Of a stretch of DNA of 64,000 nt, positions 5,735 to 59,253 are shown piece by piece. A program made the translations under genes and the position numbers. Position 1 is the first letter of the stretch, and each line of letters starts with the position of its first letter. This DNA comes from Candidatus Aphodenecus pullistercoris. Its GTDB lineage: Bacteria; Spirochaetota; Spirochaetia; Sphaerochaetales; Sphaerochaetaceae. The notes under the pieces were generated by a model, which was given only the letters and a program-made list of their open reading frames with translations, did no database searches and was not told the DNA's origin. The stretch covers positions 3,404 through 67,403 of the forward strand of contig JADIMU010000009.1 in the NCBI GenBank assembly GCA_017694495.1. The letters run 5' to 3'.

Positions 5735-5737
5735 GTC

Positions 5738-5986
5738 CTATTCCTCCAAAGCCTTCGCCAGGTGGGCGACGGCCTCCTCAGGTGTGATGGCCGAGAAGTC
5801 GGTTCCGTCTATGCGGAGGTTCGGGCCCTCCTTGCACTTGCCGAGGCAGAGGTGGCCGACAAGCTCGACCTGGTCCTCGAGACCCTTCTCCGAGATATAG
5901 GACTCGATCGCCTGCAGTATCTCGCTGTTCCCGCGGGCGAAGCAGCTTGAGCCCATGCAGAGCTCCACACTAATCTTCCTGGCCAT
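5738..5986 (-). CDS. Thioredoxin-like [2Fe-2S] ferredoxin (HfsA-like)
   Basis: LCMGSSCFARGN..HLCLGKCKEGPNL; likely start ATG 5986. Confidence 0.85.
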   Translation of the reverse strand: MARKISVELCMGSSCFARGNSEILQAIESYISEKGLEDQVELVGHLCLGKCKEGPNLRIDGTDFSAITPEEAVAHLAKALEE

Positions 5987-6010
5987 CCTTTTTCTCACCT
6001 CTTGGGAGAA

Positions 6011-6039
6011 AGTTTAAGCCCTGATTTTTCCTTAGTCAA
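6011..6039 (-). promoter_or_regulatory. Sigma70-type promoter of the hydrogenase operon
   Basis: TTGACT-N17-TAAACT on the minus strand. Confidence 0.6.
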
Positions 6040-6192
6040 TAAAATGCATCAGGGCAAGGGAATATCATCTGGAGGCGTCATTCGGCACCCCATTTGGACC
6101 CAAAAGTCCCACTTTAATTGGCCACTTTTCACATAAACAGGCATTTTGCCGCTTTCATATCACAGAACGTAACATCAAAGTCGACATTGCCC

Positions 6193-7041
6193 CTACAGGC
6201 GCCTGATTAATGTTCCACCCTTCTGCCCGAGGACGTCGATGAGCAGGTCGACGGAGGCCGGGTCGACGCTCGCCCCGGCGGTGACGCCAACATCGCAGCA
6301 GGAAATCATTGCATCCTCAAGCTCGGCAGGAGAACCGATCAGCCAGGCCGCCACTCCCCTGTCCTTCGCCAGGCGGTACAGCTCGCTCGTGTTCGCGCTC
6401 TGCCTCTCGCCCAGGACGATGACGCTCTGGCACATGTCGCACAGCTCCAGGACGGCCCGCCTCCTCCTGGAGGATGCGGGGCACACATGGCTGATGATCT
6501 CGTATGCGATGCCACGTCCATCTAGCTCGGCAAGGAGGCGGTCGGCCTTCAGCGTCGAGAATGTCGTCTGCATGATGATGTCGTAGGTCCAGGTCGGATC
6601 CAGGTCATCAAGGTCGCCAAGGTCCTCGACGACACGGATCCAGCCGGCGGCCCTGCTGACTGTGCTCAGCGTCTCGGCATGTTTCCTGAGGCCGAAGAAG
6701 AGCACAGGGAGCTGGGCCTTCGCACAGCGCATGTGGTTGAGCTTGACCAGACGGCATGTGCCGTCGACGAGGGTGAAGCCCGCCTTCTCGTAGGCCTGCC
6801 ACTCATCCAGCGGAATGCCGTGGGCACGGACCAGGGCCAGTCCCGGCTCGACGCCCTCAGGAGAGCCGATCACCTGAAGGCCCCTCTCCTCATAGCGGCG
6901 CACGACCGCATCGTTGTGGACGAGCTTGCCAATCGAGTAGATGGGACGCCGGCTTGAGGCGACGAGCTGGTCGGCCAGCTCGGTCGCACACTGGACACCG
7001 CGGCAGAAACCGTATGTGGATGCGAGATGGATATTGAACAT
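6193..7041 (-). CDS. ispH: 4-hydroxy-3-methylbut-2-enyl diphosphate reductase
   Basis: GFCRGV, LVHND, RAHG, DGTC, VCPAS, SANT motifs. Confidence 0.92.
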   Translation of the reverse strand: MFNIHLASTYGFCRGVQCATELADQLVASSRRPIYSIGKLVHNDAVVRRYEERGLQVIGSPEGVEPGLALVRAHGIPLDEWQAYEKAGFTLVDGTCRLVKLNHMRCAKAQLPVLFFGLRKHAETLSTVSRAAGWIRVVEDLGDLDDLDPTWTYDIIMQTTFSTLKADRLLAELDGRGIAYEIISHVCPASSRRRRAVLELCDMCQSVIVLGERQSANTSELYRLAKDRGVAAWLIGSPAELEDAMISCCDVGVTAGASVDPASVDLLIDVLGQKGGTLIRRL

Positions 7042-7125
7042 GGCAACAATCATTCCACACGTGGAGGCAAAAAGAAACCGCCCATCACAGGCGGCCTCTC
7101 AATACATCCCCAAAAATGCGGAAAC

Positions 7126-7536
7126 TCAGTCCTTCTTCTCGGGAGCCTTGAACTCGACAGTGTTGTCGGGCACGTCATCGCCCTTCGCCTCACCGCTCTT
7201 GTCCTCGACCTTGGCCTCCTCCTTCTTCTCCTCGACCTTCTTCTTGGCGTTGGGGTTGGTCTTGGCGGCATCCTTGTTCAGGACGGTGGAGATGGCGGTC
7301 TTTGTGAACTCGATGCGTGTGTTGTCATCGACCTTGATGACGACAGTCTGGTCCTTGACCGTGACGACGGTTCCATGGATGCCGCCGATGGTGACGATCT
7401 TGTCACCCTTCTTCATGGCGTCCAGCATGGCCTTGGTCTCCTTGTCCCTCTTCTTCTGCGGCCTGATGATCAGGAAGTAGAAGATCAGGATGATGGCGAC
7501 GAACATTATAACAGTGGTCATCATTGAGCCTTCCAT
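7126..7536 (-). CDS. yajC: Preprotein translocase subunit YajC
   Basis: FYFLIIRPQKKR..KGDKIVTIGGIHG. Confidence 0.93.
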   Translation of the reverse strand: MEGSMMTTVIMFVAIILIFYFLIIRPQKKRDKETKAMLDAMKKGDKIVTIGGIHGTVVTVKDQTVVIKVDDNTRIEFTKTAISTVLNKDAAKTNPNAKKKVEEKKEEAKVEDKSGEAKGDDVPDNTVEFKAPEKKD

Positions 7537-7677
7537 ATCTTATTCCTCACAAAACAATCTTGTCGGACTTTGTCACAACAGGATGAAAAGTAGCATCCAA
7601 GCATGACAAGCGTCAAGGATGCGCACTGTGGCAGACTTGGAGGCCCCTCCTCGTCATGACAGGCCTCCAGCCGACTG

Positions 7678-10600
7678 TCAGGTCATCGTGTTGATTGTCA
7701 CACCATCAGCGTCAATGAGGTGGGCATTGCCATACCATTCACTTCCCCACTCCTCAGGAAGGTAGCCGCACATCAGCTGTATTCTACCAGTGAAGTCCGA
7801 GAAAGCATTTTCCCCCATTGCCGTGACACTTTCAGGGATGACAACAATGCTCACTGGGTCGAAAGTCGATGAATAGTTTTCCAGCTCTGTGAAAACACCA
7901 TCCGGGATTTCCGTCACACCCTCCTCGATGACCACAGACGCAGCTGAACAGCGGTTGAGGAGAGTCTTCAGATTCGGCGGGATGCATCCACTGATCTCGA
8001 TTCTGCGTGCTCCAGGAAGCTTGCCTTTGAAGTCTTTCGAATCAACCATCCGGATTGTTCCTACTTCAAGGCCAAGCAGGCCGTCTCCCTCAAAGCCTCC
8101 ATGGCCGATTTCAATCTCATCAACCGAGTCTACATTGCGGAAAGCGTAGGTGTCGACAAGCGTGACAGCATCTGGAATGTTGACTTTCTCCAGCGCATTG
8201 CAGTTGCGGAACACTTCGTTGCCGATTTTTGTCACAGAGGCAGGGAGGCGGACAGTCCTGAGTCTGATGCAGTCTGCGAAAACGAATTCCTCAAGCTCAC
8301 TGTCTTCAGGGATATTGACAGCCACAAGACTGTCGCTGCCGGCAAAACCATGCAGCTCTCTGACTGAAGCCGGGATATCCACTTCCGTGATTCCCGTGTC
8401 CTGGAAGGCCCAGTCCTCAATCACTTCAAGGCCCTCCGGAAGGTCGATTTCAATGAGCTCCTGGCAACCAGAGAAGCTTCGTGTGCCAATCTGCCTGAGA
8501 GTGGATCCAGAGGCAAACGTGATGCCGGATAGTCCAGTGCATCCAGCGAACACACCTGTGTAGTCGCTGCTGAGGTCGTCAATGCCCAGCACGCTGACAC
8601 TTGCAGGAATCACAATCTCCTCAATGGAAGTGCATCCGGCGAACACGCCATCACTCAGGCTCTCGACACCTTCTTCCAGCACCACAGCCGACAGATTCAC
8701 ACAGTCTTCAAAGACCCCGCCATCAAGGCTCTTCACATTCCCTGGGATTTCCACTCTCGTCAGAGTCCCGCAGGAACTGAACACACTCCCTTCTATGCTC
8801 TCGAGAGTCGATGGAAAAACGATTTCGCCAATGCAATCCAGCCCCTGGAAAAGGCTGGTGGACAGCGTCGTCCAGCCATCAAGCAGGACAAGTGTGAATG
8901 TGTTGTCAAGCGAGCTGAGGGCTGCTTGGATGGAGTTCATCTTGTAGCCATCGAAAGGACCGACACGAAGCTCTTCAAGATGCGACAGAGGAAGGCCTTT
9001 TCCGCCATCATATACGCTTCCCAGCTTTTCAATGTCGTCGATTTCGAGCACAGTTACATTGCAGCCATCAAAGCTGTGCTCGGAGCAGATCATTGTGTCA
9101 CCTGTGATGGAGCTGTCGAAAATGACTGTCCTCAGCGCAGTGCACCCAGAGAAGGAATAAGGGCACGCGTAGGAGATTCTGACTTCCTCCAGACTTGTGC
9201 ACCCCTGAAAGGCATAGTTGCTGGCATAGGCCACAGGCAAAGAAGCGTCCAGAGCCTCGCAGCGGAGAGAGGAAAGGGAAGAGCATCCGGAAAAGCCATA
9301 TTCGAAGACAGTCAGGGATGTATTTCCAGCTACAGTGAAGTCTGTCATAGCTGCGCAATCCTTGAAAGCATTCTTTCCGACCTGATAAGTGTTGCCTATT
9401 TCGACAGTCGCGAGCTGCGCACAGCCTTGGAAGGACTCTTCCGGCACGATGAAGGTGCCGCTGTTCTCATAGATGAAGGATTTCAGTCCGCTTCCCTTGA
9501 AGACGCCTGTGCCGAACCTCTCGACATCGCCGAGGATTTTGACAGCTCCAAGTCCCTGCACGCCGGAGAAGGCCCCATCAGGAATCTCGCTGACACTCTC
9601 AAGGACAATGTCGACATCAAAGTCCTCATATGCAAGGCACTCGCCAAGCCCCTCAGGCAGGCTGTCCCTGACGACAAGCGTGCCAATATGCTCAAAGGGC
9701 AGATCCTCAAAGCCTTCAGGAAGTGCTGTCAGCCCATCAAGGACTAAAGTCTGCAATTGAGTGCACCCGTCAAATGCCGCAACCCCGATTGACTGCACAG
9801 ACGGGCCGATTGTGACTTTCTCAAGACCGAGGCAGTTCTCAAAAGCACTGGCCTCTATGCTCTCCACATCCCCGACAAGCAGGATTTCCTTCACGCCAGA
9901 TCCTGCAAAGGCACTGGATTTGATGACAGTGACTCCATCAGGTATCTGGATGGATGCAAGGGCAGTGCAATTCTCGAAGGCGCCAGAGGGAATGAATGTG
10001 ATGGGTGAAGCTTGAGCGAAAACAACTTGAGAGAGAGATGAACAGCCACTGAAGACATTGTAGCCGAGCCCTGTGACAGAAGCTGGAATCGTGATTGAGG
10101 AAAGTGCTGTGCAATCCTTGAAGACCTCTGGCTCGATTGCCGCAACACCTTCTCCAATTGTGACATTCCCAAGTCTTTCCAGACCACTGAATGCCCCCTC
10201 GCCTATCTCCCTGACAGAGCCGGGAATCGTGATGGATGCAAGCGATGTGCAATCCTTGAAGGCATTCTCACCTATGACAGAGACAGCATCGCCAATATGG
10301 ATTCCTTCAAGAGAACAGGCTCCTTCGAGCATTTCATACGTGATTTCCTCAAGCTCTCCACAAACTGACATCTGCCGCACACTTCCCATTGCAGGACCAT
10401 TCCAGCTGTAGTCGCCAAGCATGGACTCAAGCTCCAGAACCTCAATGTTCCCTGTCCCGTCAAATGCATTCTCCCAGTCGCATGCAACCCCAGGGCCGAT
10501 TGCGAGATGGACAAGATTCGGCTTGTCGGCAAAAGCCTGCGCGGGAACAGCGCACGATGCCTGTGAGGATTCGATTATGATTGTCTCGAGACTCTCAGGC

Positions 10601-43195: not shown

Positions 43196-43699
43196 TCAGG
43201 CCTTCTTATGATTGAAAAGTAATAGAATTGCCAAAAGAATTACAGAACATACGACTGCAGCGTCCGCCAGGTTCCAGGTGGGGAAGTAGTCCATCCCGAA
43301 AAGCCCATACATGCGCACCGAGACCCAGTCGACGACCCTGAGCGAGCGGAAGATGCGGTCGATGAGGTTGCCCACTCCCCCTCCGACGATGCCGGCCAGG
43401 CACCACCTCTCCAGCGCCGTCAGCTCCCCATCGTAGCGCTTCGAGACGATCAGGAAGGACAGGAAGGAGACGAGCACGATGGGCAGGACGATGAAGAGCG
43501 CGACCTTCACAGGCAGCTCGAGCGAGCTGCCCAGCGAGAAGGCCACAGCATCGTTGCGCACATGGACTATCCTCAGGAAGCCCGAGAGGAAGCTGTGGCC
43601 GACTGTGCCCTCCGGTATCGTCATGACGATCCACATTTTGGTCAGCTGGTCGGCCAGGATGACGGCCAACGACAGGATGAAGGGCTTGAGACGGGCCAT
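43196..43699 (-). CDS. lspA: Lipoprotein signal peptidase II
   Basis: DQLTK, RNDAVAFS, GNLIDR, VVDW, FPTWNLAD; start 43699. Confidence 0.93.
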   Translation of the reverse strand: MARLKPFILSLAVILADQLTKMWIVMTIPEGTVGHSFLSGFLRIVHVRNDAVAFSLGSSLELPVKVALFIVLPIVLVSFLSFLIVSKRYDGELTALERWCLAGIVGGGVGNLIDRIFRSLRVVDWVSVRMYGLFGMDYFPTWNLADAAVVCSVILLAILLLFNHKKA

Positions 43700-44457
43700 C
43701 ACAGGGCGGTCTTCCTGTCGATGAAGACGGTCTCGAGGCCGTACTCCTTCTCGAGGAAGCGGCCGACGGCCTTCACACCGAAGACCTCGCTCTGGTAGTG
43801 GCCACCACAGACCATGTTCATGCCGCGCTCGAGGAGCGTGTGGTAGAGCTCGTGTGAGCACTCTCCCGTGATGTAGCAGTCAAGTCCCTCGTCCATCGCC
43901 TGGTGGACATCGTCGGCCGCCCCGCCTGATATGATGCCCACAGTCCTGACCATCTCCTTGCCGAAGGGCAGGATCCTCAGGCCCCATTCCACACTGAAGC
44001 CCAGCAGGCGGGCGATCTCCTGACAGTCCATCTCGAAGGGCAGCTCGCCCTTGAAGCCGATGTACTGGCCGTGGTAGAGGCCGAAGGGATCGTAGCCCTT
44101 CATGCCCAGCGAGAGGCACATCTGGGCGTTGTTGCCCAGAACGGGATGGGCGTCCAGGGGAAGATGGCATGCGTAGAGTCCCACGTCGGCGTCGAGCAGG
44201 GTCTTCACCCTCTTGTAGTGGATGCCGCTGACCGCGATCGGCTGGCCCCAGAAGAGTCCATGGTGGACGAAGAGGAGCTGGGCGCCCTCCTCGACTGCGG
44301 CGTCGATGCTTGCCTGGCACGCGTCGACGGCCAGGGCGACCTTTGTGATCTCGCGCTCGGGACAGCATGCGACCTGCACCCCATTGAGCGAGATGTCGTT
44401 GAAGTCGGAAATCTTCAGCGTAGAGCGGAGGATTCCGTCGAGTTCGTCTAGTCTCAT
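43699..44457 (-). CDS. Nif3-like dinuclear metal-centre protein
   Basis: NGVQV, VHHGLFW, CHLPLDAH, GGHYQSE. Confidence 0.92.
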   Translation of the reverse strand: MRLDELDGILRSTLKISDFNDISLNGVQVACCPEREITKVALAVDACQASIDAAVEEGAQLLFVHHGLFWGQPIAVSGIHYKRVKTLLDADVGLYACHLPLDAHPVLGNNAQMCLSLGMKGYDPFGLYHGQYIGFKGELPFEMDCQEIARLLGFSVEWGLRILPFGKEMVRTVGIISGGAADDVHQAMDEGLDCYITGECSHELYHTLLERGMNMVCGGHYQSEVFGVKAVGRFLEKEYGLETVFIDRKTAL

Positions 44458-44524
44458 AGCAAAGGGATTATAACGCAAGGACGGCGCCAAAGGACAGGCC
44501 CGGGCGACGTACGATTTGACGTAC

Positions 44525-44697
44525 ATTTCACAGGCCGTCCACTACAACTTCATGGACAACCTATAGCTTAGTGGACAAGAACAAGGGCTAGTCCCCGACA
44601 CAAGACAAGCGAAAAGGAAGCTGGCACAGCCGGAGGTGCGACTCTGCGGAAACTTGGCACCCGATATGGCTCTCACCTAAGCTTCTTTTCCTGTCTT
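44525..44697. repeat. ~173-bp structured direct repeat, copy 1
   Basis: Near-identical to 46238-46410; differences cluster in short patches. Confidence 0.95.
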
Positions 44698-44735
44698 CAG
44701 GGGCCCAAACCTCCTTCTGAAAGAAAAATATTACA

Positions 44736-44764
44736 TTGATTTGCTCAAGAAAGTTGCGTAGAAT
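44736..44764 (+). promoter_or_regulatory. Sigma70-type promoter of the abiE operon
   Basis: TTGATT-N17-TAGAAT. Confidence 0.65.
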
Positions 44765-44783
44765 GCAACTTGAGAGAGCAAAA

Positions 44784-45371
44784 ATGACATTTTCGACCAG
44801 CGAGCTCCTACTGAAATACGCTTCATACGGCGACGCCAAGGGCAAGATCAGGCGTCTCGTCGCTTCAGGCGGTCTGATTCCTGTGGCACGTGGAGTCTAC
44901 GAGAACGACAGGGCTACGGACCCCATCTGGCTCGCACCCTGGATCTGCTCCCCTTCCTACCTTTCCTTCGACTATGTGCTCCACATCCACGACCTCATAC
45001 CGGAAGCCGTCGTGGTCTACACCTGCGCCACATGCGGGAAACGGCACAGCAGGACATGCACGAACGCCTTCGGTACATACACATTCCGCGATGTCCCGCT
45101 GCAGGCCTTTGCCCAAGGAGTCGAGGCAAGGACGGCAGAGGGTCGAAGCTGTCTGGTCGCAAGCTGCGAGAAGGCCCTTTGCGACAAGCTCTACACGCTT
45201 TCTCCGGTCAGGAACATCAGTTCGCTCGAAGCGCTGCTCTTCGAGGATCTGCGCATCGATGAGGAGGCTTTCTGGGCACTCAATCTGGAAGACCTCAAAG
45301 CTCTGGCACCACTCTACCATTCCACAAACCTCGACCGCCTGGCCCGCATGATCGCAAGGAGGAGGAAATGA
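44784..45371 (+). CDS. Type IV TA antitoxin, AbiEi-like
   Basis: wHTH LIPVARGVYE, PSYLSFDYVL, ASCEKALCD; ATGA overlap with the toxin gene. Confidence 0.85.
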   Translation: MTFSTSELLLKYASYGDAKGKIRRLVASGGLIPVARGVYENDRATDPIWLAPWICSPSYLSFDYVLHIHDLIPEAVVVYTCATCGKRHSRTCTNAFGTYTFRDVPLQAFAQGVEARTAEGRSCLVASCEKALCDKLYTLSPVRNISSLEALLFEDLRIDEEAFWALNLEDLKALAPLYHSTNLDRLARMIARRRK

Positions 45372-46237
45372 CCGACATCGTCACACAGATGCTCTCGCCC
45401 TACAAGGCCACTACTGTCGATGAGAAAAGGATGGCGCTCAAGGAAGTCATCCAGAACACCATCCTGTGCGCTCTGGCCACAGATGGCTTCTTTTCCCATG
45501 CCGCTTTTTTTGGAGGAACTGCATTGCGGATCTTCCATGGCCTCGACCGCTTCTCCGAAGACCTCGACTTCGCCCTGCTCCAGAAGGATCCCGACTACGA
45601 CATCTCGCAGCACTTCAGCGCCATCAGGAAGACACTCGAGGCCCTTGGTCTGGAATGCGAAGTCACGGTGAAACAGAAGAACGTGGAGACATATGAGGCC
45701 ACAGCCTATGTGAAATGCAAGGCCCGATAGCTCCTGTCCACCTGGTATCCGGACAGCGTCATGCAGGTACCGTACAACGAGCCCATGAAGATACGCCTGG
45801 AGGTCGATACCAATCCACCCGGCGCTTTCGGCTGCGAGTTCAAGGCCCTTCTCCTGCCAAGCCCTTGCAAGATCAGGCTATACGATGTCCCATCCCTCTT
45901 CGCAGGAAAGATCCATGCCCTTCTTTGCCGGAAGAGGACGCGCGTCAAAGGCCGCGACATATACGACTACATCTTCCATCTCTCCAGAGGTGCTGGGGTG
46001 AACATGCGCCACCTGAAGGCGAAGCTCGCATCCTCAAAGTTCATCGAGAGCGGTTGTGACATCGACCTGTCCTGGCTCATCGAGGCTCTGGAGAAGCGCT
46101 TCCAGCAGATCGACTTCAGCCAGGCGAAGGATGACGTCAGACCCTTCATCAAGGATTCCACCCAGCTCGACGTCTGGAGCGCCGACTTCCTCAGCCTCGC
46201 GACGAGGCAATACCTGAAGGAAGCACATCTTCCATGA
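45368..46237 (+). pseudogene. Type IV TA toxin, AbiEii-like nucleotidyltransferase, with an in-frame TAG
   Basis: FFGGTALRIFHGLDRFSEDLDF, KIHALL..KGRDIYD; the two ORFs share a frame, TAG at 45728-45730. Confidence 0.85.
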
Positions 46238-46410
46238 ATTTCACAGGCCGTCCACCAGAACTTCATGGACAGACTCTAAATTAGTGGACAAGAGCAAGGG
46301 ACCTGTGTCCCGACACAAGACAAGCGAAAAGGAAGCTGGCACAGCCGGAGGTGCGATTCTGCGGAAACTTGGCACCCGATATGGCTCGCCAATGCTTCTT
46401 TTCCTGTCTT
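46238..46410. repeat. ~173-bp structured direct repeat, copy 2
   Basis: Starts at the base after the abiEii stop codon. Confidence 0.95.
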
Positions 46411-46438
46411 TTGAGCTCCAAGTCTGGCCAGCCATCCT

Positions 46439-47638
46439 CTATCCGACAGCAAAAGCGGTTTCCATTAGGGGAATCTCATGTCCTAGGCCCAGTTCCCTGG
46501 CCTCCTGCTTCCAGAAGGAAACAGCATCAAGGACAGAATCGACGACCTCATCAGCATTGTCCTGGGCAAACAATGGAGACAGTGACTTGATCAAAGACAT
46601 GTCGAGCTCATGAAGCCCTTCAGTGATGGCAAGTGCGCTGGCCCTGCCGTGGACAGATGCGTTGATGTCATAGGCGGGAGCCAGTCTCCATCCATCCTGC
46701 GTGAGGAGGAAGGCGTGGTTGCGCAAATGGTTGTCCGTATTGTTGACGGAAGCGAAAAAGACTAGACGACGGAAAAGTTCATGAAGGTCATCCTGCGGAG
46801 CGACGGAACACATTGAGACGAGTTCGGCCAGATCCAGGAAGCTGGCATCCTCCGTCCGTGGATACAGAAGGCAATGGGCTGAAGCCATATGGATTCGGCT
46901 GTCCCCATCCCTGTCGAAGCGTCTGGACAGAAGGACATGCCGACCATCATGGCCAGGGATGGTCATGGTCTGGGCAGTGTGGATTCCAGCCCTTCGCGCA
47001 AGGCGCATGACGAGCTCCTCCCATAGCCCGACATCATAAGTGTCGTGGAGGGCTGGCAACTTCGCAATCCAAAGCGTTCCATCGTCATCGACGACATTGA
47101 TTTTGGGTCTCGCACCTCCAAGTGACGATGACGACGAGAAGAAGGCATCCAGCCAAAAAGCCTCAACTCCATTCTCCTCATAATCGCGCAGGAGAGTCGA
47201 GAATGAGGCGAGCTGCGACAAAGGGGGAACAGAATCCGGGGATTCGGATACAGCCTTGCCAGCCTCATCAAAGAATCGGAGAGCACCCATTCTGGTACGG
47301 TCATCAACTCCTACCAGGAAATCCCAGGTGGTGCATGTCCTCACAGCCTGCCCAGCCTTTCTCAGCATCCGGGAATGCCTGCGCTCGATCAGCGTACGAC
47401 CCCAGCGGTCAGGAATGCTGTCGATGATGAACGGAAAATCCAGGTTCCGGCTGAAAACGGAAGGGGCAAGCGCAGTCACATTGTCAAGGGGCTGAGTCCA
47501 GTTGCCAGACAACCAACCTGGGTCGAAATTGAAGCGGTAACGGTCACCACGTCCCGGAATGCTGTCCCTTTGCAGCTCTCCGACAGTTCGGGGTTCAGGC
47601 AGGAAGTCGAAAGCCGCGACCACAGTGAGAGTCCTCAT
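46439..47638 (-). CDS. HipA-family kinase toxin
   Basis: PDRWGR, SLGGARPK, WIAK, NTDNHLRNH, LAPAYD. Confidence 0.92.
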   Translation of the reverse strand: MRTLTVVAAFDFLPEPRTVGELQRDSIPGRGDRYRFNFDPGWLSGNWTQPLDNVTALAPSVFSRNLDFPFIIDSIPDRWGRTLIERRHSRMLRKAGQAVRTCTTWDFLVGVDDRTRMGALRFFDEAGKAVSESPDSVPPLSQLASFSTLLRDYEENGVEAFWLDAFFSSSSSLGGARPKINVVDDDGTLWIAKLPALHDTYDVGLWEELVMRLARRAGIHTAQTMTIPGHDGRHVLLSRRFDRDGDSRIHMASAHCLLYPRTEDASFLDLAELVSMCSVAPQDDLHELFRRLVFFASVNNTDNHLRNHAFLLTQDGWRLAPAYDINASVHGRASALAITEGLHELDMSLIKSLSPLFAQDNADEVVDSVLDAVSFWKQEARELGLGHEIPLMETAFAVG

Positions 47639-47931
47639 CGGCTGATCTCCTCAATCTCCCGCTCACCCAAGGCTTCGATGAGCTCATCGTCACGGGCGAG
47701 GAGGAGGATGTCCTTGCCCAGTCCTATGGCGCACAGGACGGAGACATAGGCTCCTATCGACACACCAGCTTCTCCGTTCTCGATCTTCCAGAGCGTTGAG
47801 CGGGAAATCTTCGCCCTTTCGGCTACGAGGCTGGTCGAAAGCCTGCGTCTAAGACGTGCAAGCCGGATCTGGGCCCCTACCCTCCGCAACATGGCCTGTG
47901 AACGAGGATAGAGCAGGACTTCTTTCTTCAT
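47635..47931 (-). CDS. HipB-like XRE antitoxin
   Basis: IRLARLRRRLSTSLVAERAKISRSTLWKIENG; overlaps the hipA start. Confidence 0.88.
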   Translation of the reverse strand: MKKEVLLYPRSQAMLRRVGAQIRLARLRRRLSTSLVAERAKISRSTLWKIENGEAGVSIGAYVSVLCAIGLGKDILLLARDDELIEALGEREIEEISR

Positions 47932-47945
47932 GTTTCTAAAAATAC

Positions 47946-47964
47946 ACAAAACATTATGTTTTGT
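47946..47964. promoter_or_regulatory. Palindromic operator candidate for hipBA
   Basis: ACAAAACAT-T-ATGTTTTGT. Confidence 0.65.
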
Positions 47965-47982: not shown

Positions 47983-48954
47983 TCACAGAAGACGCCCCAG
48001 TCTGGCATCCTGGACTCCCCAGGCCATCGAAGGACAGTCCTCACCTTTGGAAAGCCTGTCCAGGAGGATTGCGATGCCGATCTCGTCGTCGTTGAGCTCC
48101 GCCTGCCTGAAAGGATTGACGAAGACGAGGTCCTGACCCAGCGTCACATGGCTCAGCGTCAGCTGCCCATTGCCGCTGACGTGCTCCCTGTGGAAGACGA
48201 AGTCCAGGTCGCGCACGAGGCCATCGTCGCCGACGAGGCTGAGACCCCGCTGTGTGACGATCCCCTTATCTCCCCTGACCTCGATCCTCTTGCCATAGAG
48301 ACGTGAGTGGTACTGGTTCGACGAGAAGTCGTTGATGAAAAGCCTGTTTGCAAAGCGCATGAGGCGGACCTTGCGCACATAGTCCTCCCTCTCAAGGCCG
48401 GTCTCGAGGCCTGCTCGCGACGCAGTCCGGACCATGCGGGATGGGAAGTCCAGCGTCCTGACCTCGTCGGGCATCGCATCCCCAAGGCCGAGGCAGAGCC
48501 TCGCGATCGAGGCGGCGTGGTGGTTGTGGAGGCCCGACAGGTAGAGCTGGTCCACCGGGCCCACCATGGGCAAGGTTGCCAGGATGGAGGCGAAGAGCGG
48601 TGTGTACATGTACTGCTCTGCGACGGCGCCAGCCATGTCGGCAAGCGAGGCGGCCTCCTCGTCAGACAGGGAGAGGAAGGTCGTCTCGCTGAGCACACGC
48701 TCTCCCCTCTCCTTGAGGTGGAGCATCGTGGAGAGGAAGTCACGGGGACCGGAGGAGACGATGACGAGGTCGTGCTCCACAGCCAGAGCCTCGTCGAGCG
48801 CTGTGTACACTGGCACATGCCAGCATGCCAGCTCTTCCACACGCTGTGGACTATGGGTGTAGATGGATACGATCCGGAGGAGATCAGGGAGGGCTGCGCC
48901 GATGCGCAGATAGAACATCGCCCTCCAGCCTGTGCCAAGGAGTACTGCTTTCAT
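47983..48954 (-). CDS. Gfo/Idh/MocA-like oxidoreductase
   Basis: VLLGTGWRA Rossmann start, VLSET, AEQY. Confidence 0.7.
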   Translation of the reverse strand: MKAVLLGTGWRAMFYLRIGAALPDLLRIVSIYTHSPQRVEELACWHVPVYTALDEALAVEHDLVIVSSGPRDFLSTMLHLKERGERVLSETTFLSLSDEEAASLADMAGAVAEQYMYTPLFASILATLPMVGPVDQLYLSGLHNHHAASIARLCLGLGDAMPDEVRTLDFPSRMVRTASRAGLETGLEREDYVRKVRLMRFANRLFINDFSSNQYHSRLYGKRIEVRGDKGIVTQRGLSLVGDDGLVRDLDFVFHREHVSGNGQLTLSHVTLGQDLVFVNPFRQAELNDDEIGIAILLDRLSKGEDCPSMAWGVQDARLGRLL

Positions 48955-49012: not shown

Positions 49013-50887
49013 ATGCAGACAGAACTCAGCTACGGCGAGATCGCCTTCTCATACGACGCTTCCGTAATCGACCGCACGGCAGGCCGCAAGGGCATTGTCG
49101 GGCAGGACAGGGCGCTCAGGGCCCTGCGCTCGGCCCTCCACACCAACCGTCCAGGCTACAACATCTTCATCTGCGGCGACTTCGGCACAGGCAGGCTGTC
49201 GGCCGTGCGCGAGGCCGTCGAGGAGGTCATATCTGACGTGACCTTCATCAAGGACGTCATCTACGTCCACAACCCCCAGGACGTGAGCAGCCCGGTGGCC
49301 CTCATCCTTCCACCCGGCCAGGGCCGCCAGCTCGCATGCGAGCTCGAGAAGCTGGACGAAAAGGGCTACAGGGAGGCCCTCACCTCCCTCATCGCAGACT
49401 TCAGCGAGCAGCGCGTCAGGAACCACCTTGCCCTCCTCGCCGCAAGCCGCTGGGACGCCAGGATGGCCAAGCCCACCCTCGTCCTGGACAACTGCGGTGT
49501 GGAGAGGAGGCCCTTCATCATAGAGGCCCACCCCTCGTACACGAACCTCTTCGGCCGCGTCGAGGACGGACGCATCATCCCCGGCTCCTACCAGAAGGCT
49601 TCGGGAGGTTTCCTGCTGCTCTTCGCCGACGAGCTGCTTGCCGAGAAGGGGCTGTGGGACGAGCTCAAGCGCCACATGGACGCGACGGGCATGGCCGTGA
49701 AGGGAGGCCATGTGCAGGACGCCCTTGGCCGCGACTCCCGCCTCAGGCCCGAGGCCATAGGACTCCAGACCAAGATCATCCTCCTTGCAGGAGACGAGCT
49801 CTACGACCAGCTCAGCGAGAAGGACGCCGACTTCCTGCGCCTCTTCAAGTCGTCGCCACAGTTCGACTACCGCATGGAGGCGACGAAGGAGAACATCGCA
49901 GGGTGCACAGGCTACCTCATCGACGAGGCGGCGAACACTGGCCATGAGATCAGCGACGGGGCCCTGCTCCTCCTCCTGAGGCACTCCTCCTGGTTCGCAG
50001 AGAGCCGCGAGCACCTGTCCAGCCAGCTCGCACTGCTTGGCGACATCGTCAGCGAGGCGGCCAGCCTCTCACAGGGCACGATAGCTGAAGCCGACATCCA
50101 GGCGGTCATCGACGAGAGGGAGTACCATGTAGGACTCAGCGAGGACAGGATCAACGAGGAGATCGCCTCGGGCGACCTGCTCGTCGCCGTCGATGGCATG
50201 AAGGTCGGCATCGTCAACGGCCTGGCCGTCATGGACCGGGGACTCTCGTCCTTCGGCACGCCTGCCGTCATCTCGGCCACCGTCGCCCCGGGCAGCGAGG
50301 GCATCGTGAACATCGAGCACGAGGCGGGGCTGTCCGGAGAGATCCACGACAAGGGACTGCTCATCCTCGAAGGCTACCTGAGGAAGATGTACGCCATGAA
50401 CTTCCCGCTTTCCATCTACGCAGGCATCTGCTTCGAGCAGAACTACAGCGAGATCGACGGCGACAGCGCCTCCTCGTCTGAGCTCTACGCCCTGCTGTCG
50501 GCGATCGGGGAGATTCCTGTGCGCCAGGACATTGCCGTCACAGGCTCGGTCAACCAGATGGGCCTCCTGCAGCCTGTTGGTGGCATAAACGAGAAGGTCA
50601 GCGGCTTCTACCACAGCTGCCGCCGCGTAGGCTACACGGGGCGCCAGGGGATAATAATCCCGCGCCAGAACCTCAAGAACCTCATCCTCCCCAGGGAAGT
50701 CGAAGAGGCCGTGAAGGAAGGAAGTTTCCACATCTGGGCCGTAAGCGACATCGAGGAGGGAATGGAGATCATGACGGGCCTTCCCTCAGGGCAGCGCAAC
50801 GCACGTGGCATCTTCCCCTCGGGAAGCTTCAACCGCAGGATCGAGGACAGGTTGAAGAAGCTCTACGAGAGCGGCAAGTCAAGCTAG
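49013..50887 (+). CDS. Lon-like S16 protease
   Basis: IVGQDRA, GDFGTGR, DGDSASSSEL (catalytic Ser), VGGINEKV (catalytic Lys). Confidence 0.9.
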   Translation: MQTELSYGEIAFSYDASVIDRTAGRKGIVGQDRALRALRSALHTNRPGYNIFICGDFGTGRLSAVREAVEEVISDVTFIKDVIYVHNPQDVSSPVALILPPGQGRQLACELEKLDEKGYREALTSLIADFSEQRVRNHLALLAASRWDARMAKPTLVLDNCGVERRPFIIEAHPSYTNLFGRVEDGRIIPGSYQKASGGFLLLFADELLAEKGLWDELKRHMDATGMAVKGGHVQDALGRDSRLRPEAIGLQTKIILLAGDELYDQLSEKDADFLRLFKSSPQFDYRMEATKENIAGCTGYLIDEAANTGHEISDGALLLLLRHSSWFAESREHLSSQLALLGDIVSEAASLSQGTIAEADIQAVIDEREYHVGLSEDRINEEIASGDLLVAVDGMKVGIVNGLAVMDRGLSSFGTPAVISATVAPGSEGIVNIEHEAGLSGEIHDKGLLILEGYLRKMYAMNFPLSIYAGICFEQNYSEIDGDSASSSELYALLSAIGEIPVRQDIAVTGSVNQMGLLQPVGGINEKVSGFYHSCRRVGYTGRQGIIIPRQNLKNLILPREVEEAVKEGSFHIWAVSDIEEGMEIMTGLPSGQRNARGIFPSGSFNRRIEDRLKKLYESGKSS

Positions 50888-52320: not shown

Positions 52321-54483
52321 TCAGGGAAGGAGGGCGAGAGAGGCGCGCGTCGAGATCGTCCTCGTCGTCCTCATTCCGTCGAACTGGATGACGTGCGCCC
52401 TCTTGTCGAGGTCGAGGCCTACGATGGTGCCATCCCCGAAGCTCTTGTGGTGGACCCTCGTACCGATGGAAAGGAAGCCCTTCGTCCTGTCATCCTCGTC
52501 CAGGAGTCCGCTGTCCGTGAGCCCGATCCGGCTCTGGGCCCTGTCGACCAGCTCCTCGGAGGGCGGGTTCTCGACTTCCATGAGGCTCTGGTCGATCTCC
52601 AGGAGGAAGCGCGATGGATAGCGCACCAGGCCCTCGTGCCCCATGCCGGCGGCCTCGCTCAGGAAGAGGCCGTCCTCGGCCCTCGTGAGGGCGACGAAGG
52701 CGAGCCTCCTCTCCTCCTCCATCGCCTGGATGGTGCGCACCTTGCGCGAGGGCAGGATGCCCTCGTTCAGACCGCATACGAAGACGTGGGGGAACTCGAG
52801 GCCCTTGGCCGCGTGGATCGTCATCAATCGGATGCGGTCTCCACCATTGGGCTCGTCGCTGTTCGTGTACAGGGCGACGTGGCGCAGGTAGTCCTCGAGG
52901 CCCGCCTCCTCTCCGCAGCTCGTCTCGTAGTCCCAGACGGCCTGCTTGAGCTCGGCCAGGTTGTCGAGCCGCTCCTGGCTGCCCTCGGTGCGCAGCATCC
53001 TCTCGTAGCCGCTCTCGTCAAGGAGCTGGGAGAGCACCTCGGAGGCGGGACGGCCTTGCCAGGAGGACGAGAAGCGCTCCACGAGGTCGACGAGGTCCCC
53101 TGCCCCCGTCCCCTTGAAGATGGCATCCTCCAGATTCTCCCTGAGCACTTCGTACAGCCCCCGCCCCTCGGCCGTGGCCCTCTCCTCGAGCCAGGCCATG
53201 CGCCGCTTGCCCAGATTGCGCTTGGGCCTGTTGGCCACACGTCGGAAGGAGAGGTCGTCCTGGAAGACGATGAGGCGCAGGTAGCTCAATGCGTCCTTGA
53301 CCTCGCTCCTCAGGTAGAAGGGTACCCCGCTGTAGATCGCATACGGCAGCCTGCGCTCCAGGAGGACCTTCTCCAGTGGCCGCGTCAGATAGTGGGCGCG
53401 GTAGAGGATGGCGATGTCCCTCCAGGCGGCGCCGGAGTCATGGAGACAGGCGATCTGGTCACAGATCCAGCCTGCCTCCTTGTCGGCGTCTGGAGCGTAG
53501 TGGCAGCGCACCGGAGTACCCGCCTCCCTCATCGGAATGAGCGCCTTCTCGATCCTCGAGCGGTTGTGGGCGATCAGGCTGTTGGCCACGGCGACGATCG
53601 AGCCTGTGGAGCGGTAGTCCTCCATCATCATGATCGTCTTCACGTCAGGATAGTCCTTTTCGAGGTTCATCATGTACTCGTGGCTCGCCCCACGCCAGGA
53701 GTAGATCGTCTGGTCGCTGTCGCCGACGACGAAGAGGTTGCCATGGTGGGCGGCGAGGACTTGCATGAGCTCGTACTGCTGGCCGTCGATGTCCTGCATC
53801 TCGTCGATCATGATGTACTCGAGACGCTGCTGCCACTTCAGCCTTATCTCTGGCCGCTCGCGGAAGATGTGGAGCGTCAGGTAGATCAGGTCGTTGTAGT
53901 CCAGTGCGAAGCACTTCTTCTCCTGGTAGAGGTAGCCGTAGAAGATGATCTCGGCCGGCAGCGTCGCCGTATCAGCCTTGGCCTTGAGCGAGTCGAGAGG
54001 CAAGGCGATCAGGTCCTTGTAGTAGTCCTTGTCAGTGACGCACTTGCGCACTTCTATCATGTCGCGGGCCTTGGCGTAGGTCATGTCCTGGAGCGTCAGT
54101 CCCCTCTCCTCGTATATCGTGGAAAGCATCGAGTCTATGTCGCTGTTGTCCAGGACGAAGAAGCTCTTGGGAAAGCCCACGGCATGGCTGTCCTCCTGGA
54201 GGACGGCGACACAGAAGCCGTGGAAGGTGGACACGTAGCCCGTGTCGTCATCCCCGGTCAATGCATGGATGCGCTGCCGCATCTCGTTCGCCGCCTTGTT
54301 GGTGAAGGTCACGCACAGTATGTTGCCAGGCATGATGCCCAGTTCGCTGACAAGATAGGCGAAGCGCCGCGTCAGGGCGCGAGTCTTGCCGCTGCCCGCG
54401 CCGGCGACGACGCGCAACACACCCTCCGTGGTGGTCACAGCCAGCCTCTGCGCCTCGTTCAGTCCTTCCAGAAGATCGTCCAT
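52321..54483 (-). CDS. pcrA: UvrD/PcrA DNA helicase
   Basis: AGAGSGKT, TFTNKAA, DEMQD, VGDSDQTIYSWRGA, TIHAAKGLEF, EERRLAFVALTRA. Confidence 0.9.
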   Translation of the reverse strand: MDDLLEGLNEAQRLAVTTTEGVLRVVAGAGSGKTRALTRRFAYLVSELGIMPGNILCVTFTNKAANEMRQRIHALTGDDDTGYVSTFHGFCVAVLQEDSHAVGFPKSFFVLDNSDIDSMLSTIYEERGLTLQDMTYAKARDMIEVRKCVTDKDYYKDLIALPLDSLKAKADTATLPAEIIFYGYLYQEKKCFALDYNDLIYLTLHIFRERPEIRLKWQQRLEYIMIDEMQDIDGQQYELMQVLAAHHGNLFVVGDSDQTIYSWRGASHEYMMNLEKDYPDVKTIMMMEDYRSTGSIVAVANSLIAHNRSRIEKALIPMREAGTPVRCHYAPDADKEAGWICDQIACLHDSGAAWRDIAILYRAHYLTRPLEKVLLERRLPYAIYSGVPFYLRSEVKDALSYLRLIVFQDDLSFRRVANRPKRNLGKRRMAWLEERATAEGRGLYEVLRENLEDAIFKGTGAGDLVDLVERFSSSWQGRPASEVLSQLLDESGYERMLRTEGSQERLDNLAELKQAVWDYETSCGEEAGLEDYLRHVALYTNSDEPNGGDRIRLMTIHAAKGLEFPHVFVCGLNEGILPSRKVRTIQAMEEERRLAFVALTRAEDGLFLSEAAGMGHEGLVRYPSRFLLEIDQSLMEVENPPSEELVDRAQSRIGLTDSGLLDEDDRTKGFLSIGTRVHHKSFGDGTIVGLDLDKRAHVIQFDGMRTTRTISTRASLALLP

Positions 54484-54510
54484 GTCCTGATGATAGCACT
54501 GGGCCGGACA
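54483..54510. repeat. 28-bp direct repeat, copy A
   Basis: TGTCCTGATGATAGCACTGGGCCGGACA, identical at 59200-59227. Confidence 0.95.
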
Positions 54511-54592
54511 TGCGGGAAAGGCAGGGCGGACAGCAGGAATATCTCACAGCCGATGTATTGAAAAGTAATCCAAAATATATTACCATTCAAAC

Positions 54593-56795: not shown

Positions 56796-57941
56796 TCACA
56801 CGGATGCGGAAGACGACGAATCGTAGTTGCCTGTCATCATCCCCCAGATGAAGCAGGCAAGCTCCCTGGCACATGCAGCCTTTGCTACATTCGTAGCCTT
56901 TCCGCTCTCCTTGAGGCTGATGAACTTCTTCTTTATCCTTGCCGTTCCCCTGTCCGCATAGGCGATGACATCCGGATCCTGTCCTGCCTGCCTTGAAAGG
57001 AGCCTCTTGGACTTCCTGTACAGGTTGGAACGTGCAATAGAGTTCGCACTCTCGCACAGCACCTTCCTGCAATGGCTGTTGCCCGCCTTCGTGATGCCAG
57101 TCTTCTGGATGCTCCTGCCACTCGAGTGCTCTCCCGGACACAGGCCTAGGAAGGAGGCGAACTGGTCGGCGGTCCCGAACCTGCTGAAATCCCCGACCTC
57201 GGTCACCATCACCATCGCCACATGCGTGTCGATGCCTGCGAAGCAACGGAGCTTGCCGACAGCCTCCTCATAGCATTCCTCTTTCGAGAACGCCTCGATC
57301 CGGGCATCGAGCAGCACGATGGCATCCATCAGCCTCGTGACCTCGTTCAGGTACTCGGTGAATGTGATCTGGTCCACCTCGTTGTCGAACTTCTGCCTCT
57401 TCAGCCAGTCCATGTGATTCTGTGTCCAAGTGTTCCCCTCGCAGTACTTCCTGTCCCTTCTGAGGAGGAAGGACTGGATGTGCTGCTTCGCCCTCTTCAG
57501 CTCATCCTTCCTGTCGTCACGCATCCTTATGTAATCCCTGTACGCCTCATCCTCCTCGCTCAGGGGGACGACTTCGGAATAGGAGCCCCAGTAGACGGCC
57601 CTTGCCAAGGTCCTCGCATCCCTGGCATCAGTCTTCACCCTGTTGCCCGCCACGGGCTTGTAGATGCTCGTAGGAGCCATGACATGGCATCTGATGCCGG
57701 CCTTCTCAAGACTCCTCTTGAGGCCGAAGCCGGTTGGGCCAGCCTCGTACCCGACCTCAATCGACACGGGGACGCCCATCTCCTTCCTCAGCCTGTCCAC
57801 ATAGGCGACAACGCTCTTGGGAGCCGCAACTGTGGTGCATTCTGCGACAAACGATCCGGACTGCGGATTGAAGGTGCTCAGCGAATACGAATCCTTATGG
57901 ACATCAATGCCGATCGTTCTTACAATTTCATTGGTTTTCAT
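56796..57941 (-). CDS. IS110-family DEDD recombinase
   Basis: GIDVHK, YEAGPTG, KTDARDA, GEHSSG..GITKAGN. Confidence 0.95.
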   Translation of the reverse strand: MKTNEIVRTIGIDVHKDSYSLSTFNPQSGSFVAECTTVAAPKSVVAYVDRLRKEMGVPVSIEVGYEAGPTGFGLKRSLEKAGIRCHVMAPTSIYKPVAGNRVKTDARDARTLARAVYWGSYSEVVPLSEEDEAYRDYIRMRDDRKDELKRAKQHIQSFLLRRDRKYCEGNTWTQNHMDWLKRQKFDNEVDQITFTEYLNEVTRLMDAIVLLDARIEAFSKEECYEEAVGKLRCFAGIDTHVAMVMVTEVGDFSRFGTADQFASFLGLCPGEHSSGRSIQKTGITKAGNSHCRKVLCESANSIARSNLYRKSKRLLSRQAGQDPDVIAYADRGTARIKKKFISLKESGKATNVAKAACARELACFIWGMMTGNYDSSSSASV

Positions 57942-59036: not shown

Positions 59037-59199
59037 TGCTCCACTCCTTTGCCCTACAATTCAAGTGCCAGCCAGCAGCCTGACATTCCAGCACCCACAT
59101 GAGACCCGTCTTTGCGCCTTCCTGCAAGCTGCTTGGCAATGCCCTGGCCAACTTCTTCGGCAGCATCATACCAGGACCAGGCCTGTCAGACAGGCTCCC

Positions 59200-59227
59200 T
59201 GTCCTGATGATAGCACTGGGCCGGACA
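59200..59227. repeat. 28-bp direct repeat, copy B
   Basis: Identical to 54483-54510. Confidence 0.95.
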
Positions 59228-59253
59228 GTCAGGAAGCGCCCAAGCGCAGCCTC

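Follow-up and report, generated by a model that had tools for sequence, protein, structure and literature searches.

The 64,000-nucleotide stretch of the Candidatus Aphodenecus pullistercoris genome analysed here (contig JADIMU010000009.1, positions 3,404 to 67,403; hereafter the window) carries an AbiE toxin–antitoxin (TA) gene pair, abiEi–abiEii, set between two long direct repeats. A preliminary description, made from the letters alone, had reported two structured direct repeats of about 173 bp that bracket abiE exactly, in the order repeat, promoter, abiEi, abiEii, repeat, with the second copy beginning right behind the abiEii stop codon. The coordinates, the order of the parts and the abutting stop codon were all verified, and a sigma70-like promoter was located between copy 1 and abiEi. 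The features of the bracketed unit are as follows.

44525..44700, + strand: putative small-RNA gene, copy 1 (repeat finder, covariance models, folds, single-copy homologues in nine other species)

44736-44764, + strand: abiE promoter, TTGATT-17-TAGAAT, with a palindrome reaching to 44782 (promoter scan)

44784..45371, + strand: abiEi, antitoxin/transcriptional regulator gene, intact (AbiEi_4, E 0.0027, under the curated cut-off)

45368..46237, + strand: abiEii, DUF1814 nucleotidyltransferase toxin gene, a pseudogene in this strain (PF08843)

46238..46410, + strand: putative small-RNA gene, copy 2, with the same list of parts as copy 1

The two repeats were 89% identical across 173 nt. The repeat finder reported three collinear blocks spanning 44525-44708 and 46238-46421, with two 2-nt indels; identity was 87% in the left segment (63 nt), 99% in the central segment (79 nt) and 78% in the right segment (37 nt). 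Copy 2 starts at 46238, the base that follows the abiEii TGA stop codon (46235-46237), and the space between the repeats holds the abiE promoter and presumed operator, abiEi, abiEii and nothing else. There was no mobility gene between the repeats or beside them, the neighbours being a NIF3 gene and hipA. A genome-wide search of the 2.07-Mb assembly revealed only these two copies, and a mismatch-tolerant search with either hairpin arm returned no additional full or reduced copy in the assembly. With two copies in the genome, the repeat does not behave as a cassette-system element scattered at the boundaries of cargo genes. The same repeat–abiE–repeat layout was present in a 2,991-bp ENA contig (L172, one SNP) and in a 92-kb contig (L292). 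As two independent public assemblies reproduce it, the layout is not the result of mis-assembly.

The region has a single canonical sigma70-like promoter, the one upstream of abiEi. An imperfect palindrome, TTGCTCAAGAAAGTTGC / GCAACTTGAGAGAGCAA, read from the sequence, surrounds its -10 box. AbiEi autoregulates, and because this autoregulation is published the palindrome is presumed to be the AbiEi operator. The two genes overlap by an ATGA at 45368-45371, and AbiEii matched PF08843 in both its N-terminal half (E 3.8e-13) and its C-terminal half (E 6.9e-12). Homologues of AbiEi (39–62% identity) were paired with AbiEii at 80 loci; the nearest, at 56–62% identity, came from metagenome-assembled genomes (MAGs) of other gut spirochaetes, and the family was also found in gut Clostridia, Alphaproteobacteria and other groups. 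The abiEii reading frame is interrupted by an in-frame TAG at 45728-45730 (codon 121). Glu occupies this position in 57 of 67 homologues, and the change in the window is therefore a GAG to TAG nonsense mutation. The same TAG was found in L172 and L292, while eleven sister-strain assemblies had an intact abiEii of 289 aa. To judge from the genes, abiE in this strain would be a repressor/antitoxin gene with a dead toxin gene, and in the sister strains an intact type IV TA/abortive-infection pair. The locus resembles described AbiE type IV systems in its PF08843 toxin, in the toxin start codon overlapping the stop codon of an AbiEi-like regulator gene and in the palindrome over the promoter; it differs from them in the nonsense codon at a conserved Glu in the window strain.

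The nature of the repeat emerged from comparison with relatives; all genomes, that of the window included, are metagenome-derived. In two genomes of the same genus (G013 and G003), one homologous unit lay between divergent NIF3 and lon genes, without TA genes. Homology with these units began at ATTTCACA and ended at CCTGTCTTC, which are the exact boundaries of the repeat. Covariance models built from the units of the window species and its relatives (R1, then R2) were applied across the family (258 genomes). They detected the unit in nine further species, all belonging to this genus and each with a single copy per genome, and in none of the other genera; the unit is duplicated in the window species and single in its relatives. 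Weak model matches in genus g18 and in G012 looked like plain terminators and were treated as false, as was a weak match inside an ORF (G009:C9). The unit occupied several gene contexts: NIF3/lon; NIF3 and an ABC-transporter gene in G009, where lon is elsewhere in the genome; the interval between the 3-dehydroquinate synthase and prephenate dehydrogenase genes in G011, G015 and G002; and yet another genomic site in G017. In every one of them an upstream block, TTTCACA-N16/17-TTCAYR-N9/10-TAnaTT, and a short hairpin, SL1, preceded an irregular hairpin of ~105 nt, and single-sequence folding recovered this architecture in 11 of 11 sequences. The corresponding parts of the window copies are given below.

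44526-44532, 44549-44554 and 44562-44567, + strand: upstream block of copy 1 (TTTCACA, TTCATG and TATAGC)

~44585-44595, + strand: SL1 of copy 1

~44602-44698, + strand: long hairpin of copy 1

44611-44621 / 44681-44690, + strand: P1 of copy 1

within 46238..46410, + strand: SL1 of copy 2, GGGAC-CTGT-GTCCC

46326-46336 / 46394-46403, + strand: P1 of copy 2

Covariance-model matches at copy 1 scored 113.6 and 96.8 bits. In all members the outer stem was GAAAAGGAAGC / GCTTCTTTTCC-TGTCTTC, and the internal loop of the hairpin was conserved as GGA facing a CGGAA-like sequence. Covariation analysis, which the preliminary description had named as a check, revealed compensatory changes. In helix P3 they affected four pairs out of five (hand-checked helix table); the last pair of P2' was C-G, U-A, A-U or G-U among the sequences; and SL1 covaried completely (GGGAC/GUCCC, CGGG/CCCG, GGC/GCC, CCAUCA/UGAUGG), with the variants GGGAC/GTCCC and GGGGC/GCCCC within the window species. 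The hairpin was 75–76% identical in nucleotides to those of G013 and G003, and the flanking Lon N-terminus 59% identical in protein. We conclude that the repeat represents a putative self-contained small-RNA gene, new to Rfam and restricted to the genus, with an RNA unit estimated at about 125 nt. Transcription is most likely from the + strand, which is preferred because the conserved upstream block stands on that side. A structured RNA, initially put forward as one alternative among others, is the right description of the repeat. The RNA would constitute a candidate small-RNA family, new and backed by covariation, in Bullifex-like spirochaetes of the chicken gut.

Known RNAs did not account for the unit. 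With Rfam 15 the window gave no match at the gathering score, and the repeats gave none even at E <= 10. SRP RNA was rejected because the SRP RNA of this genome sits on contig C38. The Rfam 6S model matched nothing in the genome, and the unit, whose ends form no closing stem, does not resemble 6S RNA. A lon leader or riboswitch was rejected since the unit was found in three unrelated gene contexts, and a small ORF within the unit was rejected since none was conserved (sequence read). No homologue of the unit was present in plasmid or phage collections. A scan of metagenomes with the outer-stem pattern, which is unspecific, returned 120 mostly unrelated hairpins and no homologue by score; model screening of the viral contigs it returned likewise found no homologue.

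Each copy in the window also carries, at 44537-44577 and 46250-46290, the arms GTCCAC...TGGAC...TAGTGGAC, in which an 8-bp inverted repeat, GTCCACTA/TAGTGGAC, flanks a putative promoter. These arms, and the imperfect hairpin of ~100 nt beside them, had been noticed in the preliminary description and were both verified by sequence and folds. Both copies in the window species have these arms, and homologous units from other species lack them; the arms may constitute an operator peculiar to the window species.

The evidence for insertion came from the genes that surround the bracketed unit.

43699..44457, - strand: NIF3/DUF34 gene, conserved left neighbour (PF01784, E 5e-61)

46439-47638, - strand: hipA (HipA_C, E 1e-43)

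47635-47949, - strand: hipB (HTH_31)

47983..48954, - strand: ORFX, 323 aa, with a weak GFO/Idh/MocA-like N-terminus, between hipB and lon

49013..50887, + strand: Lon-like (LonB/LonC-type) protease gene, conserved right neighbour (AAA_32, Lon_C, LonC_helical)

Empty sites of the form NIF3, one RNA unit, lon were found in G013, G003, G018, G006 and the metagenomic lineages P0003/P0004/P0005, and NIF3 adjoins the RNA element in G009 as well as in these four genomes. The Lon protein of the window is 71% identical in amino acids to that of G013, in which lon comes directly after the single RNA element. Neither abiE, hipBA nor ORFX had a counterpart in the NIF3–lon interval of the relatives. The G+C content at third codon positions (GC3) was 0.85–0.87 in the host genes NIF3, lon and trkH, and 0.70 in abiEi, 0.75 in abiEii, 0.60 in hipA and 0.65 in hipB; that of ORFX was 0.79. 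Because the relatives have one RNA copy and no TA genes, abiE and hipBA are insertions, and their low GC3 marks them as foreign. The preliminary description had taken the repeats for the boundaries of an uncharacterised cassette system and hipBA for a second cassette. The repeats do bound an inserted two-gene unit, given the relatives with one copy and no abiE, but the cassette system gives way to insertion with long target duplication, a pattern known from restriction-modification genes; hipBA stands as a second insertion, absent from relatives and low in GC3, but it lacks a flanking repeat of its own. In a sister species (L285, NIF3 85% identical), the 740 bp upstream of NIF3 had no RNA unit, on a contig too short to judge, and this segment (1-740) looked like another insert, which may be frameshifted.

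Strains of the same species were retrieved through exact look-up of NIF3. Their NIF3 was 100% identical to that of the window, and their DNA was ~98% identical and collinear with it. They differed in an extra cassette of 849 bp, DUF4160–DUF2442, located between NIF3 and RNA copy 1 and flanked by a 16-bp direct repeat, AGGACAGGCCCG(A/G)GCG. In blastn of the window against L263, two collinear blocks overlapped at 44491-44506, and the window carries the 16-mer once.

44491..44506, no strand: 16-bp empty target site of the DUF4160–DUF2442 cassette, AGGACAGGCCCGGGCG (blastn against L263, junctions read)

By these junctions the window is the exact empty site of the cassette, or a case of its precise loss. 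The cassette was present in 10 of 10 further contexts. In L277 (1857-3482; ENA ERZ16268216 scaffold_2308) a DDE_Tnp_1 insertion sequence (IS) lay between NIF3 and this cassette. The NIF3–lon intergenic region is an insertion hotspot, with abiE, hipBA, the DUF cassette and, in L277, the IS.

Among eleven strains the two RNA copies were mosaics of copy-1-type and copy-2-type segments. Copy 1 had a copy-2-type left part in L278 and a copy-2-type right part in L279, copy 2 had a copy-1-type right part in L275, L276 and L280, and the central hairpin was invariant in both copies across all eleven strains. Such mosaic alleles show that the repeats exchange sequence by gene conversion, which accounts for the core being 99% identical. 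In L263/L280 both RNA copies were without SL1, through different deletions (25 and 10 nt), and in L276 both were without the tail after TTTTCCT. These losses in both copies could reflect parallel loss, gene conversion or assembly artefact.

Insertion with long target duplication has been described for restriction-modification gene complexes (Nobusato et al., 2000, cited in Furuta, Abe & Kobayashi, 2010; PMC2853133). It is recognized there by repeats of more than 30 bp, by their alignment to one copy in a genome with an empty site, by the lack of mobility genes and by an insert of less than 20 kb, and the duplications reported were 45–420 bp long. At the abiE locus the repeats measure 173 bp (89% identity) and align, across species only, to a single copy in insert-free genomes; the insert is below 20 kb, no mobility gene lies in or beside it, and no transposase is nearer than ~10 kb. 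As cargo the insert carries an AbiE TA pair and not a restriction-modification complex. The two situations share a small selfish unit without mobility genes, repeats far exceeding the target duplications of transposons and aligning to a single copy in insert-free genomes, and duplication lengths that vary between events. They differ in that the target here is a complete small-RNA gene, the cargo a TA pair, and the copies diverged (89%) and demonstrably gene-converting. We consider it likely that the abiE cassette is a recombinase-less insertion with a long duplication of a chromosomal small-RNA gene. As such, the case falls within the known long-target-duplication pattern, newly with an AbiE cassette and at a small-RNA gene.

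A foreign abiEi–abiEii cassette of 1.54 kb, extending from its own promoter/operator to the toxin stop codon, would have entered the species at the RNA gene, and its insertion would have duplicated the entire 173-bp target although the insert encodes no recombinase. The likeliest route that we infer is a Campbell-type single crossover of a circular cassette whose homology arm is one copy of the target. This would need no dedicated enzyme, the carried arm would set the ends of the repeat, the copies might differ from the outset, and the event would be reversible via the same repeats. After insertion, gene conversion between the repeats has kept their core near-identical, and as direct repeats they could in principle also bring about deletion or release of the 1.7-kb unit. 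Other addiction cassettes gather in this intergenic region too, namely hipBA downstream and, in the sister strains, DUF4160–DUF2442 upstream.

A survey of 80 related AbiE loci set the sequence upstream of abiEi (1.2 kb) against that downstream of abiEii. Under strict geometry, 7 of 64 AbiE loci were bracketed by repeats, as compared with 0/58, 0/60 and 2/59 at shifted control positions. In six alphaproteobacterial species, a host-derived 60-bp repeat, 88–93% identical, duplicates the final 45 nt of the ORF upstream. In a Clostridia MAG (L208) the order was tRNA-Met, 53-bp repeat, abiE, repeat, gatB, gatA, with no integrase, and the 53-bp repeat corresponds to the tRNA-Met 3' end plus terminator. 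Further AbiE loci had repeats of 30–121 bp.

Several points weigh against a recombinase-less insertion with duplication of a small-RNA gene. Six of the seven bracketed loci in the survey go back to a single alphaproteobacterial event. No abiE-free allele of the window species was found through exact-protein look-ups of AbiEi, HipA, NIF3 and DUF2442, all 14 of 14 site-covering assemblies being occupied, and the abiE empty site was seen only in other species, in which Lon is 59–71% identical. The resident and the cassette-borne copy were not distinguishable, the comparison of downstream flanks with relatives not being significant. As regards the RNA gene, its upstream block lacked sigma70 -35/-10 geometry in the promoter scan, and SL1 was missing from both RNA copies in one strain. 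Finally, the genome has four tyrosine-recombinase genes (PF00589), on contigs C3, C36, C55 and C67.

These recombinase genes bear on the most serious rival, a site-specific integrase. The unit would then be a relic of a cis-mobilizable element (CIME) or a trans-mobilized mini-island, and its repeats the attL and attR sites of a tyrosine or serine integrase that targets the RNA gene and has been lost or acts in trans. CIMEs of streptococci are decayed integrative and conjugative elements (ICEs) or integrative and mobilizable elements (IMEs) still bearing a known integrase's att sites at the 3' end of a target gene (PMC5704250, PMC7563491). The abiE unit is like them in its flanking direct repeats, in having no integrase, relaxase, conjugation or other transfer genes, and in its size, 1.7 kb lying within the published range of 1.2–13 kb (PMC5704250, PMC7563491); moreover, the homologous AbiE pair at the tRNA-Met 3' end, with its 53-bp repeat, occupies a classical att-like site. 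Unlike them, it showed no sign of ICE or IME decay: the parts of the window flanking abiE had neither ICE or IME genes nor remnants of an ICE, IME or phage, and neither an integrase nor an accreted partner was seen. What was duplicated is a whole gene with its upstream block, rather than a 3' stretch surrounding a crossover core. The genome, phages, plasmids and the screened viral contigs yielded no recombinase or attP-bearing element with the repeat sequence. In addition, cassettes in the window species are flanked by duplicated sequence of 16, 40 or 173 bp, with a different target in each of the three cases, which argues against one site-specific enzyme. We therefore regard an integrase origin as unlikely.

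For many islands the target is a tRNA or tmRNA gene, which is made whole again by a copy that the island brings. The abiE unit is alike in that a structured RNA gene is the insertion site and a copy is left on both sides. It is unlike them in having no integrase, in duplicating the full gene with its upstream block, and in that its target is a genus-specific RNA outside Rfam.

It is less probable still that the RNA gene was first duplicated in tandem and that abiE later landed by chance between the paralogues. The copies differ by 13–22% outside the core, so that the duplication could be old, and the locus attracts insertions in general, as seen from hipBA, the DUF cassette and the IS of L277. 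However, no other genome of the genus had two copies, the insert would have to fill the space between the copies exactly, from the abiE promoter to the abiEii stop codon, and exact bracketing of the same AbiE family recurs in unrelated phyla.

We give marginally less weight again to the hairpin being an attC-like DNA recombination site of an undescribed cassette system, in which each cassette ends in a full or reduced hairpin. As in integron cassettes, a unit running from promoter to stop codon precedes an imperfect palindrome ~100 nt long (~105 nt here), with a conserved outer stem and a variable interior that preserves the structure better than the sequence; abiE ends in a full copy, and the DUF cassette of the sister strains ends in an interior-deleted mini-hairpin. 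Against this, the unit was single-copy, chromosomal and cassette-free in housekeeping contexts in nine species, and neither IntI, attI nor the attC core motif was present. The preliminary description had reported no attC consensus, and this was borne out: RYYYAAC/GTTRRRY core sites, as read, were absent from the outer stem in all members, and contig C60 gave no PF00589 match and hence no integron integrase. DUF2442 cassettes elsewhere (80–82% identity) had no hairpin, and the DUF cassette is bounded by a 16-bp repeat.

An origin from the ends of a decayed IS, whether of the IS3 type entertained in the preliminary description or of another, is favoured only by a resemblance in spacing (TG-N16-GTGGAC). 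It can be set aside with near certainty: the repeats are direct rather than inverted and occur just twice in the genome; relatives have the unit once, in synteny and without a transposase nearby; plasmids and phages gave no match; and units of other species lack the GTCCAC arms.

The mini-hairpin of the DUF4160–DUF2442 cassette begins immediately past the stop codon of the cassette and aligns end to end with an interior-deleted hairpin of the small RNA (score 40, as compared with 11.2 +/- 2.0 in 2,000 shuffles, maximum 21). An intrinsic part of DUF2442 cassettes was rejected because the homologues from other species (80–82% identical) have no such hairpin, and on this ground the cassette has a past beside a small-RNA copy in this lineage, although its present place is within the 16-bp duplication, upstream of the RNA gene. 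The left end of the DUF cassette was not significant as a small-RNA remnant. Quite speculatively, a recombinase-free cycle might operate in gut spirochaetes, and possibly in many bacteria, in which cassettes carry host sequence (a whole small-RNA gene or hairpin) as a homology address, integrate by single crossover and are released by recombination between the repeats; the mini-hairpin might then be the scar of a former address. We hold this to be doubtful.

TA and abortive-infection pairs rank with the most mobile of prokaryotic genes, yet most lack a mobility gene, and their entry into chromosomes is largely unexplained. Read as a recombinase-less insertion with long target duplication, the abiE locus would be an unusually complete natural record of one entry route, comprising an exact cassette with a long target duplication, cross-species empty sites, a second cassette present or absent with a 16-bp duplication, and mosaic repeat alleles. 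It would extend the restriction-modification pattern to AbiE and suggests that a structured-RNA gene can serve as a duplicated target.

Two AbiE loci outside the window had additional repeats. In L226 (alphaproteobacterial MAG SIG59), repeats of 130–230 bp recurred every 700–900 bp at 5544-7882, directly downstream of the abiE pair, and this series may be a multi-cassette array. In L243, a 1,863-bp contig from a binchicken co-assembly with an abiE pair, the ends share a 121-bp repeat, 98% identical, with iteron-like TTACAAAAGCGGACA units; a small circle, a tandem and a bracketed insertion are all conceivable for this contig.

The window also contained a 40-nt direct repeat (54479-54518 and 59196-59235; 28 nt perfect, 90% identity overall), which begins at the start codon of a pcrA/UvrD-type helicase gene and encloses a block of 4.7 kb. 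This block holds an HTH gene, a Fic gene fragment, TnpB-like fragments and an IS110-family transposase gene (56799-57941). The claim in the preliminary description that the window has no recombinase does not hold, as this transposase and the TnpB-like fragments lie ~10 kb from abiE. The block is a second repeat-bracketed island of the TA type in the window.

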